Positions 4,726 through 28,889 of a stretch of DNA of 32,000 nt are shown one piece after another. Origin of the DNA: Nanopusillaceae archaeon (GTDB lineage Archaea > Nanobdellota > Nanobdellia > Nanobdellales > Nanobdellaceae). Position 1 is the first letter of the stretch. Each line of letters starts with the position of its first letter. The stretch covers positions 30,001 to 62,000 of the forward strand of contig JBMFJD010000004.1 of the NCBI GenBank assembly GCA_049974095.1, in the 5' to 3' direction. A program made the position numbers and the translations under genes. A model generated the notes under the pieces. The model searched no databases, had not been told where the DNA came from, and saw nothing but the letters and a program-made list of their open reading frames with translations.

Positions 4726-4881
4726 ATTATTCAAAGATCATTTCTTTTATAAAATAATATCTATTAAAAATTTTATATAATATATGTTTATTTCAATATA
4801 TTAGATCTAAAATAAAAATGAACATTTCCAAATAATTCTCTGAATAATTTTTATTATATTTATGAGAATAATAAAATATTC

Positions 4882-4889
4882 TTTAAAAT
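4882..4889 (+). promoter_or_regulatory. TATA-like box upstream of tRNA-Ala
   Basis: TTTAAAAT is centred about 25-26 nt upstream of tRNA position +1 (4911). The AT-rich background limits specificity. Confidence 0.3.
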
Positions 4890-4910
4890 TCTTCTACAAT
4901 TCAAATTATA

Positions 4911-5432: not shown

Positions 5433-5466
5433 ATTTTTATATCTAAAATTTAGATATTATCTTATA

Positions 5467-21481: not shown

Positions 21482-21531
21482 ATGATGAAGGATCAACGAT
21501 CTGAGGAGATGATGAATGATGGGCAAACTGA
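21482..21531 (+). ncRNA. C/D box sRNA (canonical boxes, two 12-nt guides)
   Basis: ATGATGA(21482-21488)-AGGATCAACGAT(12)-CTGA(21501-21504)-GGAG-ATGATGA(21509-21515)-ATGATGGGCAAA(12)-CTGA(21528-21531). All four boxes match consensus, with the ideal archaeal C-12-D'-spacer-C'-12-D geometry. Confidence 0.75.
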
Positions 21532-22039
21532 GATATATACGCTAGGTCATTCTAATAGAAATATAGAGGAATTCTTGGAGATATTAAAAAAGAAAGATAT
21601 AGATATTGTTATAGATGTAAGATTAATACCTGGATCAAATAAATATCCACAATATAACAAAGAAAATTTAGAAAAATACTTAAATAATAATAATATTGAA
21701 TATTTACATTTAAAGGAGCTTGGAGGATTTAGAAAACCTTTAAAAGATTCTAAAAATATATGGTGGAGAAATAAAAGTTTTAGAGGATTTGCAGATTATA
21801 TACAAAGGACAGAATTTAAAGATGTAATAAAAAAATTGATAGAAATTGCAAAAAATAAGAAAGTAGTAATAATTTGCTCTGAGAAAAATCCTTATAGATG
21901 CCATAGAAGAATAATATCTGACTATTTATCATTAATATATAATGTTAAAGTAATACATATAATTGATAAAAATAGAGAAGAAGAACATAAAGTTACTAAA
22001 TCTACAAAAATAATCAATAATGATATTATTTATCAATAA
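21482..22039 (+). CDS. DUF488 family protein
   Basis: EIYTLGHSNR...IDVR..P.S...P.....L and ...CSEKNPYRCHRRIISDYL are DUF488 hallmarks. The family usually starts just before the IYTxGHS strand, so the real start is probably the ATG at 21509 or 21512, inside the sRNA C' box. Confidence 0.7.
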   Translation: MMKDQRSEEMMNDGQTEIYTLGHSNRNIEEFLEILKKKDIDIVIDVRLIPGSNKYPQYNKENLEKYLNNNNIEYLHLKELGGFRKPLKDSKNIWWRNKSFRGFADYIQRTEFKDVIKKLIEIAKNKKVVIICSEKNPYRCHRRIISDYLSLIYNVKVIHIIDKNREEEHKVTKSTKIINNDIIYQ

Positions 22040-22040
22040 T

Positions 22041-22469
22041 TTAGTGGGCGGCTTCCGTGCTTTCCCGGCCTTCGCCAGTACTCACACAGACGTGGGCCGG
22101 CTTAACTTCCGTGTTCGAAATGGGTACGGGTGTTTCCCGGCCACTTTGGCCGCCCTTGATTTTATCATTTCCATGAACCTTTTTTAAATCTTTTCTTATA
22201 TTGAATCTCTTAACATATCCACAATATAAACATTTATATATAATTCTTCCTCTTCTTATCCTTATTTGTAATGTTTTACCGACAATCCATGGAGTATAAC
22301 ATCTTTTACAAAATTTATTTCTTAAATTTTTTGGCAATCTAATTCTAGCTTTATTTTTTATTTTCCATAAAATATAAATATATCTTCTAGATAATTCTAA
22401 ATTATCAATATTTTCTATTGCTTTCTTATATAAATATTCTATTCTCTTTATTGCTGTTTTTTTATACAT
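22041..22469 (-). CDS. rnp4: RNase P protein component 4 (Rpp21/Rpr2-like zinc ribbon); ORF extends through the 5S rRNA gene
   Basis: Residues 1-93 fit the Rpp21 pattern (SRRYIYIL...IRLPKNLRNKFCKRCYTPWIVGKT..IRIRRGRIIYKCLYCGYVKRF). There is no stop codon before the 5S gene, so residues ~105-142 are encoded by 5S rDNA. Confidence 0.7.
   Translation of the reverse strand: MYKKTAIKRIEYLYKKAIENIDNLELSRRYIYILWKIKNKARIRLPKNLRNKFCKRCYTPWIVGKTLQIRIRRGRIIYKCLYCGYVKRFNIRKDLKKVHGNDKIKGGQSGRETPVPISNTEVKPAHVCVSTGEGRESTEAAH
22043..22156 (-). rRNA. rrf: 5S ribosomal RNA
   Basis: The minus strand reads AGGGCGGCCAAAGTGGCCGGGAAACACCCGTACCCATTTCGAACACGGAAGTTAAGCCGGCCCACG...GGAAGCCGCCCACT. It contains the conserved CCCGnACCCATTTCGAACnCGGAAGTTAAGCC core, and the terminal helix GGGCGGC/GCCGCCC closes. 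About 114 nt, GC-rich, with no 16S or 23S nearby. Confidence 0.92.
22180..22188 (-). promoter_or_regulatory. TATA-like box for 5S rRNA embedded in the Rpp21 coding sequence
   Basis: The minus strand reads TTTAAAAAA (encoding ..DLKK..), centred about 28 nt upstream of the 5S 5' end. Confidence 0.3.
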
Positions 22470-22812
22470 ATATTTTTACTTCCTTTTCTTCATTTTTATC
22501 AATATTTTTTACATATAATAAAATATAATCATCTTGACTTGCATTTACTTTTGGTATTAAAACTTCTATATTTTGTTTTCTATATTTATCAATTGAAATA
22601 ACAATTGGAGAAATTAAATTATAATATAATCTAAATTTTAAGGCAATATATTGATCTTTAAAATATATATACTTCGTTCCTATTTCAAATTTCCTTATAT
22701 ATGGAGAATGATTCTTAATTGTTAATATAACTTTCTTTGAGTATTTCAAATTATCAACATCTGTAGATATATTTACTTCTACATCCCATCTATCTTCCAA
22801 TTCTTCCATCAT
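22462..22812 (-). CDS. Hypothetical protein (beta-rich, no recognised family)
   Basis: 116-aa ORF that overlaps pth2 (ATGA) upstream and rnp4 (8 nt) downstream, so it is probably co-translated with them. Confidence 0.5.
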   Translation of the reverse strand: MMEELEDRWDVEVNISTDVDNLKYSKKVILTIKNHSPYIRKFEIGTKYIYFKDQYIALKFRLYYNLISPIVISIDKYRKQNIEVLIPKVNASQDDYILLYVKNIDKNEEKEVKIYV

Positions 22813-23162
22813 AATAATTTTAATGTTCCTGTTATTTTATCAATCTTATCTTCATAATCTGGGCCTATACCTATGCATGTTATAGTACCTGGTTCTAATT
22901 GAGTTAAACCAGCATCCTTTATTAATACAGTATTTAATCCTTCATTTTTTGCTTTATTATATATATCCATTAATTTTTCTAAATTTTCTACATAAACAAC
23001 AACCTTCTTGGCTCCTTCTTCTCTCCATTTTTCTACAATTTCTTTATTTTTATTTAATTGCTCTAATACACACTCAACTGCAGCATGGGCTACTTGAACA
23101 CACAACTTTCCTTTTCCAATATCTAAATCTTTTCTAACTACAACTACTAATTTATAAACCAT
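22809..23162 (-). CDS. pth: Peptidyl-tRNA hydrolase, archaeal type (Pth2)
   Basis: 117 aa. KLVVVVRKDLDIGKGKLCVQVAHAAV and LIKDAGLTQLEPGT..C.GIGP are PTH2 signatures. Confidence 0.9.
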   Translation of the reverse strand: MVYKLVVVVRKDLDIGKGKLCVQVAHAAVECVLEQLNKNKEIVEKWREEGAKKVVVYVENLEKLMDIYNKAKNEGLNTVLIKDAGLTQLEPGTITCIGIGPDYEDKIDKITGTLKLL

Positions 23163-23514
23163 CTAATCCTTTTAATTTTTCTAATAAAAACTTTAATTTA
23201 TAATTATCTAGTTTTTCATTTATTATTTCTTCATCTAATTTTTTATATAAGTCATCTAATTTTTTATTTATTTCATTTAGAACAGAATATATATTCTTTA
23301 TTTCATTTTCTAAATTATTATATTTATTTTCAATCATATTTATTCTTTCGTCTCTTTTTTTATCTAATTCTTGAATATTTAAAATTTCACTTTTCATTTT
23401 ATTTGTTTCCTCTTTTACATCATCTACATATTTCTTTAAATTTTCTAATATCTCTTCATATTTATCAAAGTCCAATAACCTATTAATAATTTTATCATAA
23501 CCTAAATCATCCAT
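23152..23514 (-). CDS. Hypothetical coiled-coil protein
   Basis: 120 aa, K/E/N/L-rich with heptad character. It overlaps the pth2 start by 11 nt. Confidence 0.5.
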   Translation of the reverse strand: MDDLGYDKIINRLLDFDKYEEILENLKKYVDDVKEETNKMKSEILNIQELDKKRDERINMIENKYNNLENEIKNIYSVLNEINKKLDDLYKKLDEEIINEKLDNYKLKFLLEKLKGLDGL

Positions 23515-28817: not shown

Positions 28818-28889
28818 CCATAATAATTATTTATCAATAATTTAAAACTTAATATTATGTTTTAACTTTGAAAAACAAAAATATTATAT

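Follow-up and report, generated by a model that had tools for sequence, protein, structure and literature searches.

A 5S rRNA gene inside the extended reading frame of the RNase P protein Rpp21 in a nanoarchaeon, a probable by-product of genome compaction

In the 32-kb stretch of Nanopusillaceae DNA analysed here (the window), the reading frame of the RNase P protein Rpp21 continues without a stop codon through an entire 5S rRNA gene on the same strand. The same stop-less state recurs in several related lineages. The Rpp21 domain exhibits purifying selection in these lineages, and the sequence comparisons reveal no selection at the protein level on the C-terminal tail that the overlap adds. 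We consider this arrangement to be a by-product of genome compaction rather than a designed fusion, with a probability of about 0.7; our confidence is lower for the fate of the transcript.

Anatomy of the extended reading frame and its neighbours

The positions of the features are given in Table 1. The original prediction held that the Rpp21 frame spans the whole 5S gene in the same orientation and that residues 105-142 are specified by 5S DNA, and the ORF list and the Rfam match agree on this. Its 3' end of the 5S gene (22043) also stands, while the 5' end, given as 22156, is at 22157 in the Rfam match. The tail (residues 94-142, 49 residues) is made of 11 promoter/spacer codons and 38 5S codons, and the sequence specifies the tail tryptic peptides VHGNDK, GGQSGR, ETPVPISNTEVKPAHVCVSTGEGR and ESTEAAH. 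The element TTTAAAAAA occupies positions -31 to -23 relative to the first 5S nucleotide and is read in the Rpp21 frame as (GA)T-TTA-AAA-AA(G). Most relatives end Rpp21 at the TAA inside this element (22186-22184 in the window, where it is out of frame).

Table 1. Features of the Rpp21-5S locus (window coordinates)
Feature	Position	Strand	Basis or remark
Complete ORF: Rpp21 domain, promoter/spacer codons and 5S codons	22041..22469	(-)	142 codons + stop; ATG at 22469 (ORF list)
Rpp21 (RNase P protein component 4) domain, residues 1-93	22191..22469	(-)	Pfam, AlphaFold2, Foldseek, dN/dS
Extra nucleotide site	22189..22190	(-)	junction alignments and junction written in codons
TTTAAAAAA, putative TATA/box A-like element of the 5S promoter	22180..22188	(-)	conserved position
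Variable spacer between box and 5S, 22 nt, stop-free in the Rpp21 frame	22158..22179	(-)	sequences
5S rRNA gene, full length, wholly within the ORF (codons 105-142)	22043..22157	(-)	Rfam RF00001
TAA stop of the extended ORF, first in frame (22043-22041)	22041..22043	(-)	T shared with the final position of the 5S model; convergent DUF488 stop 1 nt away
First T5 run 3' of 5S, candidate archaeal terminator for the 5S and Rpp21 transcripts	22006..22010	(-)	sequence
Upstream genes: 120-aa coiled-coil protein, PTH2, 116-aa beta-sandwich protein	22462..23514	(-)	overlap one another by 4-11 nt
Convergent DUF488 gene	21482..22039	(+)	its 3' end lies 3 nt from that of 5S

Residues 1-93 of the ORF are a genuine Rpp21. 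The Pfam family Rpr2/Rpp21 (PF04032) matches residues 9-84 over its whole profile (positions 1-90 of 90) with an E-value of 7e-16 and 58.7 bits, against a gathering cut-off of 29.3 bits. The domain has the architecture of two N-terminal helices followed by a zinc ribbon, and the four cysteines of the CxxC...CxxC motif (C54, C57, C80 and C83) are invariant in an alignment of 10 sequences; the four-cysteine zinc ribbon motif of Rpp21 has been described previously (PMC4919917). An AlphaFold2 model exhibits pLDDT values above 90 over residues 1-93. The best Foldseek matches of this model in the PDB are Rpp21 of Pyrococcus horikoshii (2ZAE, 1X0T) and the Rpp21 chain G of Methanocaldococcus jannaschii RNase P (6K0A, 6K0B), at an rmsd of 1.2-2.4 A over 93-99 columns; for 2ZAE_B, the E-value is 5e-8, the rmsd 1.2 A and the target-normalised TM-score 0.85. 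A further match is 2KI7_B. The archaeal Rpp21/Rnp4 proteins (P. horikoshii Ph1601p, 1X0T and 2ZAE; M. jannaschii 6K0A chain G) thus share the fold of residues 1-93, whereas the 49-residue C-terminal extension of the window ORF has no counterpart in any homologue. The NCBIfam equivalog PRK03954 matches residues 3-97 with 61.9 bits, below its curated cut-off of 162, which indicates a divergent short nanoarchaeal form and is no argument against family membership.

The 5S gene is equally clear. The Rfam model 5S_rRNA (RF00001) matches 22157..22043(-) over model positions 1-120, not truncated, with 75.9 bits against a cut-off of 38, and the orthologous 5S genes of relatives score 66-81 bits. The G+C content is about 60% in the 5S gene and 23.6% in the window. 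Rpp21 acts together with Rpp29 on the RNase P RNA, and these other parts of RNase P were sought in the 32-kb window: no RNase P RNA was found, even at E-values up to 1, and no Rpp29. The 116-aa gene overlapping the Rpp21 start was considered as a divergent Rpp29 and rejected, having no Pfam or NCBIfam match at E-values up to 10. An Sm-like Rpp29 was likewise ruled out for its product, the AlphaFold2 model of which (pLDDT 89) is a beta-sandwich with generic Ig-like matches only.

The locus is densely packed on both sides. The Rpp21 start overlaps the upstream gene by 8 nt, and relatives keep the gene order of the upstream cluster and Rpp21. The upstream genes and Rpp21 probably form a single operon, and the Rpp21 message would therefore have no room to end before 5S. 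The first T5 run lies 33-37 nt beyond the 5S 3' end, within the coding region of the convergent DUF488 gene. A scan for bacterial-type promoters and terminators, a type of scan that is uninformative for an archaeon, returned one "terminator" match, which is the 5S helix sequence on the opposite strand. The DUF488 gene is frameshifted by a 1-nt deletion in two other assemblies of the window species (L052 and L053). Its start in the window is overlapped by a C/D sRNA (21482-21531), a second overlap of stable RNA and coding sequence, 500 nt away.

The Rpp21 stop codon and the putative 5S promoter box in relatives

All of the nine database homologues are 92-106 aa long and end, in the alignment, at residues 93-99 of the window ORF. 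Those of Nanobdella aerobiophila and strain YN1 already carry the NCBI name "ribonuclease P protein component 4". Scans of a one-genome-per-species set and of metagenome contigs yielded 44 loci, all from Nanopusillaceae, Nanobdella, Nanoclepta or similar organisms. A 5S gene lies downstream of Rpp21 on the same strand in about 43 fetched loci, and the Rpp21 stop precedes it by 8-34 nt (mostly 25) in about 40. Two Nanoclepta-like loci (L021 and L023) have the 5S gene adjoining Rpp21 in inverted orientation. The same order of PTH2, the 116-aa protein, Rpp21 and 5S on one strand is seen in Nanopusillus acidilobi (CP010514), "Nanobsidianus stetteri" Nst1 (APJZ01000002), YN1 (AP031373) and Nanobdella aerobiophila (AP019769). 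Like the window, these four loci carry the TTTAAAAAA box, which lies 30-31 nt upstream of 5S and shares bases with the end of Rpp21. In contrast to the window and three further loci (L054, L056 and L008), which read through, their Rpp21 frame closes 8-34 nt before 5S, either at the TAA of the box, as in YN1 and N. acidilobi, or within the spacer, as in N. aerobiophila.

In the junction alignment, a conserved box, RTTTAAAAAAYATT, starts 30-31 nt upstream of 5S, and the spacer behind it varies. TTTAAAA begins at -30/-31 across 32 distinct junctions, and the tRNA genes of the window exhibit a TTTAAA-like box at the same distance. In Nanoarchaeum equitans, the box A TTTAAA has been mapped about 26-27 nt upstream of transcription starts, and nanoarchaeal terminators are T-stretches (PMC3491384). 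Given its conserved position, the geometry of the tRNA genes and the N. equitans box A, we take the conserved box for the promoter of 5S; transcription would begin at the mature 5' end or no more than about 5 nt from it. A TTTAWA-type box about 26-30 nt before the transcript start, at a fixed position across relatives, is what is expected of an archaeal TATA/box A element. The TATA-like box that the original prediction had placed inside the coding sequence thus keeps its distance to 5S across more than 40 related loci, and the first of its two options, an internal 5S promoter together with a longer Rpp21 message, would fit this conserved box.

The box supplies the Rpp21 stop in most relatives, through its TAA (AGA AAG GTT TAA). 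The window junction reads AGA AAA GAT TTA AAA AAG, against AGA AAA ATT/GTT TAA in YN1 (L001) and L004. One extra base is present between AGAAAA and TTTAAAA in the window species (three assemblies), L054, L056 and L008, and the stop is out of frame because of this single extra base just 5' of the box. The distance from box to 5S remains unchanged (31 nt) in the stop-less lineages. Among these, L008 is the MAG KM4331-16 and comes from the genome scan; L054 (JGI 3300039096) and L056 (GCA_002506595.1) were found through homologues of a neighbouring gene. Their nucleotide identities to the window are 91% for L054, 83% for L056 and 77% for L008, and those of L001 and L004, which have a normal stop, are 84-87%. 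In N. aerobiophila and in L022/L050, the frame passes the box and closes within the spacer. Where the frame ends is evidently labile within this family.

The junction of the window is confirmed by two other assemblies. L052 (Logan, SRR25937769), found by exact look-up of the 142-aa protein, is 99.6% identical to the window, and L053 (JGI 3300041912, a 48-kb contig), reached via the neighbouring 116-aa protein, is 99.55% identical. The Rpp21-5S junction is the same at every base in all three, with SNPs and one indel elsewhere, and the extra base of the window lies outside a homopolymer (AAAAGATTT), all of which makes an assembly error very unlikely. Comparison of orthologous loci had been set beforehand as a test that could refute the overlap, and its outcome is divided: most relatives have a normal stop, and four lineages are stop-less, with three assemblies in agreement and no assembly error.

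A neighbour-joining tree of 10 genes speaks against one common origin of the stop-less state for the window and L008: the window pairs with L001, which has a normal stop, in 300 of 300 bootstraps, and L008 falls outside. The window and L054 are joined with 100% support, and L056 tends toward L001 and L004 (83%, one gene). From these trees, the stop-less state appears to have changed at least twice, either by an early origin and a reversion (A6 to A5) in the branch of L001 and L004, or by up to three origins; the short contigs are compatible with both histories. No stop-less lineage, among at least three that have diverged, has regained a stop in the spacer. The arrangement is evidently tolerated by the cell in several lineages.

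Chance and selection in the 5S-encoded tail

Chance is sufficient for the open frame, and no special explanation is needed. A random 22-nt spacer of this AT-rich composition is stop-free with a probability of about 0.42, whether calculated from composition or by shuffling, and just 2 of the 66 possible single substitutions in the window spacer would create a stop. Of the three sense frames of 5S, a single one is open. The same frame is open in relatives, except for a TAG at the first 5S codon in Nanopusillus-type sequences. With a fixed distance from box to 5S, any +1 shift at the box leads into this open frame.

The domain and the tail differ sharply in their pattern of change. Among the stop-less lineages, the dN/dS of the Rpp21 domain is 0.05-0.16, indicating strong purifying selection and therefore a functional Rpp21. 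Changes in the tail are mostly nonsynonymous, and the split between synonymous and nonsynonymous changes differs from that of the domain in all six stop-less pairs (Fisher p 0.002-0.03). Between the window and L008, pN and pS of the spacer are 0.35 and 0.43, with a domain pS of 0.41, so that the spacer takes up substitutions at about the neutral rate. Codon usage points in the same direction: measured against 31 window ORFs, 15 of the 38 5S-encoded codons occur at one per thousand or less, compared with 1 of the 93 domain codons, and CGG, present twice in the tail, does not occur in these ORFs at all. The tail is hydrophilic and predicted to be disordered (AlphaFold2 pLDDT below 50 for residues 96-142), which is weak evidence as the alignment holds no homologues over the tail. 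A phmmer search of the 38 5S-encoded residues against 1.84 billion representatives returned only spurious ORFs across tandem 5S arrays (P0011 and P0012, in the same 5S frame) and repetitive proteins. Judged from these sequence comparisons, the tail lacks the signature of a selected extension. The idea that it is a meaningful part of the protein, implied by the original prediction, does not hold against its nonsynonymous changes, rare codons and predicted disorder.

Two observations qualify the neutral picture. The spacers of L056 and L008 differ at only 4 of 33 positions although the synonymous sites of the domain are near saturation; this similarity could reflect a constraint at the DNA level or recombination. 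Weak selection for the open frame could likewise account for the lack of regained spacer stops, and the numbers are compatible with neutrality.

Compaction and the alternative explanations

The reading that we favour starts from Rpp21 as what appears to be the last gene of a packed operon in Nanopusillaceae and relatives, with a single-standing 5S gene next to it on the same strand. The putative promoter box of the 5S gene would overlap the last Rpp21 codons, its TAA doubling as the Rpp21 stop in most lineages. An extra nucleotide 5' of the box would then shift this TAA out of frame, and the next 22 nt would by chance hold no in-frame stop. The constant spacing between box and 5S would put the ribosome into the sole open frame of the G+C-rich 5S sequence, and the ORF would close only at the TAA adjoining the 3' end of 5S. 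Most of the 5S RNA may start at this promoter, as a primary transcript already close to its mature form. The Rpp21 message probably continues through 5S to the T-run at 22010-22006, as it would in all relatives; it is expected to carry the 5S sequence because no terminator precedes 5S in any relative. Ribosomes passing the rare codons and the structure would add the 49-residue tail, probably disordered and functionally neutral.

The message may instead end without a stop codon. The transcript would be cut at the 5S boundaries, or upstream transcription would be blocked at the busy 5S promoter, and stalled ribosomes would be rescued by aPelota/ABCE1. This would yield products of roughly 100-104 residues and probably a lower output of Rpp21. 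Several facts speak for such a non-stop message: there is neither a stop before 5S nor a T-run between the domain and 5S, an abundant stable RNA must come from the same DNA, and C/D box sRNAs are processed out of mRNAs in N. equitans (PMC3491384). However, a conserved putative promoter box at the correct distance would make excision unnecessary for 5S, no processing signals were identified, and the strong purifying selection on the domain implies that the output must be adequate. We regard this explanation as unlikely.

A smaller probability still goes to the proposal that the nesting is itself functional, either because the position of 5S within a translated message is selected or because the tail has a function. 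The 5S gene would then have been kept inside a translated RNase P protein gene through several nanoarchaeal speciations, and the entry of ribosomes into 5S, the excision of 5S (leaving a non-stop message) or its folding would set the amount of Rpp21. Folding of 5S, 5S-binding ribosomal proteins or stalling at rare codons might couple the level of the RNase P subunit to 5S and ribosome production. If true, the nested 5S would link the supply of RNase P to ribosome biogenesis. The four stop-less lineages, at about 77-91% nucleotide identity and with no spacer stop regained, are consistent with this proposal, as is the adjacency of Rpp21 and 5S across Nanopusillaceae and Nanobdella, extending even to Nanoclepta (5S inverted). 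Against it, a normal stop serves L001 and L004, the closest relatives, as well as about 40 further loci; the tail exhibits mostly nonsynonymous change, very rare codons including CGG and predicted disorder; and the chance expectation of about 0.42 needs no selection. Taken together, we find a functional nesting very improbable.

Recoding is more doubtful again. A -1 frameshift at the A-rich box would end translation within a few codons (...KK-GSWK-stop) and give a protein without the 5S-encoded tail. A dnaX-type slippery heptamer, A-AAA-AAG (within TT-A-AAA-AAG), does lie in frame at 22185-22179, and both alternative frames hit a stop within a few codons. However, the heptamer is present in only two of the four stop-less lineages, the window (A-AAA-AAG) and L056 (A-AAA-AAT), and missing in L054 (A-AAA-AGG) and L008 (A-AAA-GAT), so that it is not conserved. 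The nearest stable structure, 5S helix I, begins about 22 nt downstream, too far for a classical frameshift stimulator, and the A-run is explained by the role of the promoter box. Finally, a one-base sequencing or assembly error that made the stop loss only apparent is rejected as very unlikely: the frame does hang on a single base, and the extra base of L008 falls in an A6 homopolymer at an assembly coverage of 3.8x, but three assemblies of the window species from different data sets (L052 and L053 besides the window) agree on the junction, and L054 and L056 are independently stop-less with different flanking sequence.

Returning to compaction, the nesting of 5S in the Rpp21 frame is a curiosity of this process and a variant of the gene overlap known from compact archaeal genomes. 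The overlaps of C/D box sRNAs with mRNAs in N. equitans (Randau 2012, PMC3491384) likewise combine a stable RNA with coding DNA on the same strand of a minimal archaeal genome. Those are guide RNAs of about 50 nt at gene borders, whereas in the window a whole rRNA gene, apparently with its own promoter, lies inside the frame. Open frames on rRNA are also known from spurious protein calls (Tripp et al. 2011, PMC3203614). Unlike these, the frame of the window continues a real, conserved and selected gene that would deliver ribosomes to the rRNA sequence. Our literature searches turned up neither an Rpp21-5S overlap nor a stop codon inside a TATA box.

When a frameshifting indel near the 3' end of a gene removes its stop codon, the protein gains a C-terminal extension or the mRNA becomes non-stop, and downstream sequence decides where the frame next closes. 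The window differs from this general case in that its downstream sequence is an essential, constrained RNA gene and the lost stop is part of a putative promoter element; the tail is therefore unable to evolve freely. Peptides embedded in mitochondrial rRNA, such as humanin and MOTS-c, are known, and at the window locus there is no evidence of a functional rRNA-encoded peptide. The compaction is extreme: a stop codon doubles as part of the putative TATA box of the next gene, and a one-base indel toggles between a normal gene and a frame spanning an rRNA. The stop-less lineages provide a natural test of archaeal ribosomes driven into highly structured, rare-codon rRNA, and of the handling of non-stop messages if the message is cut at the 5S boundaries.

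The presence of Rpp21 does not alter what is known of the distribution of RNase P. The original prediction took a nanoarchaeal Rpp21 as news for the extent of RNase P loss. However, the RNase P RNA together with p21, p29 and p30 was reported for the nanoarchaeon Nst1 and contrasted with N. equitans in 2013 (Podar et al. 2013, PMC3655853), nanoarchaeal RNase P has since been discussed by Samanta et al. 2016 (PMC4919917), and NCBI names the protein in Nanobdella aerobiophila and YN1. RNase P has accordingly been established since 2013 for Nanoarchaeota other than N. equitans. The stop-less genomes can nevertheless be mis-scored as lacking Rpp21, in a phylum known for the loss of RNase P: no gene is called at the Rpp21 position in L053 and L054 (JGI) or in L056 (NCBI), presumably owing to the overlap of the ORF with the rRNA.

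C/D box sRNA at the start of the DUF488 gene

The first 50 nt of the DUF488 reading frame have the layout of a canonical C/D box sRNA (Table), in which ATGATGA is followed by 12 nt, CTGA, 4 nt, a second ATGATGA, 12 nt and a second CTGA. Several archaeal C/D families of Rfam match this segment below threshold; the match to sR2, for instance, scores 36.1 bits (E-value = 1e-4), whereas the family's cut-off is 42. The C/D boxes were found in about 28 related loci, directly upstream of rpS17 and divergent from it, and the first guide, GGATCAACGAT, is unchanged or nearly so in most of them. Genomes devoid of DUF488 are among those carrying the boxes and the conserved guide. The ATGs of the C/C' boxes provide the start of the DUF488 ORF, so that its first ~17 codons are sRNA sequence. 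This is the second overlap of an ORF with a stable RNA inside 1 kb, the first being that of Rpp21 with the 5S rRNA.

DUF488 itself looks like a gene undergoing loss. It is absent from the relatives L001 (YN1), L004 and L008, and in two other assemblies of the window species (L052 and L053) a 1-nt deletion (aaaggtttt to aaa-gtttt) accompanies fragmented gene calls, of 86 aa in L052 and of 67 and 86 aa in L053.

Coordinates of the features discussed
Feature	Locus	Position	Strand	Remark
DUF488	window	21482-22039	+	intact, 185 aa
C/D box sRNA, canonical	window	21482-21531	+	box layout and sub-threshold Rfam matches
116-aa protein	window	22462-22812	-	between PTH2 and Rpp21
Promoter geometry of three tRNA genes	window	4881-4910, 5437-5466, 28860-28889	+
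5S gene adjoining Rpp21	L021	2777-2891	-	Nanoclepta-like
5S gene adjoining Rpp21	L023	2789-2903	-	Nanoclepta-like
Stop-less Rpp21	L053	1851-2274		no public gene call
Stop-less Rpp21	L054	951-1462		no public gene call
Stop-less Rpp21	L056	503-1012		no public gene call

The Rpp21-5S neighbourhood

In the Nanoclepta-like genomes the 5S gene adjoins Rpp21 on the opposite strand, with no gap between the 5S 3' end and the Rpp21 stop codon in L021. This adjacency despite inversion indicates that the neighbourhood predates its orientation. The 33-nt spacers before 5S of L056 and L008, the latter being the group's most distant genome, differ at 4 positions; the synonymous sites of their Rpp21 genes are near saturation (16.5/21). 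Constraint at the DNA level or recombination of the Rpp21-5S segment may possibly account for this likeness. The JGI and NCBI gene calls lack the stop-less Rpp21 at three loci, presumably because of its overlap with the 5S rRNA. Prodigal-style calling (Logan) returned the 142-aa product in L052.

The adjacent 116-aa protein is known only from Nanoarchaeota, always in the same place and overlapping both neighbours. A search for a family match found none, and its confident AlphaFold2 model (pLDDT 89), a beta-sandwich with one helix, has only generic Ig-like structural neighbours. Its identification as Rpp29 is thereby ruled out.

tRNA promoter geometry

The three tRNA genes carry TTTAAA/TTTATA/TTTTAA-like boxes beginning 30-31 nt ahead of the mature 5' end, the same geometry as that of 5S. 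Judged from box position, the predicted tRNA leaders would be merely 0-5 nt long. Such short leaders are thus implied in a lineage retaining RNase P proteins, unlike N. equitans, which does not keep them (PMC3491384).
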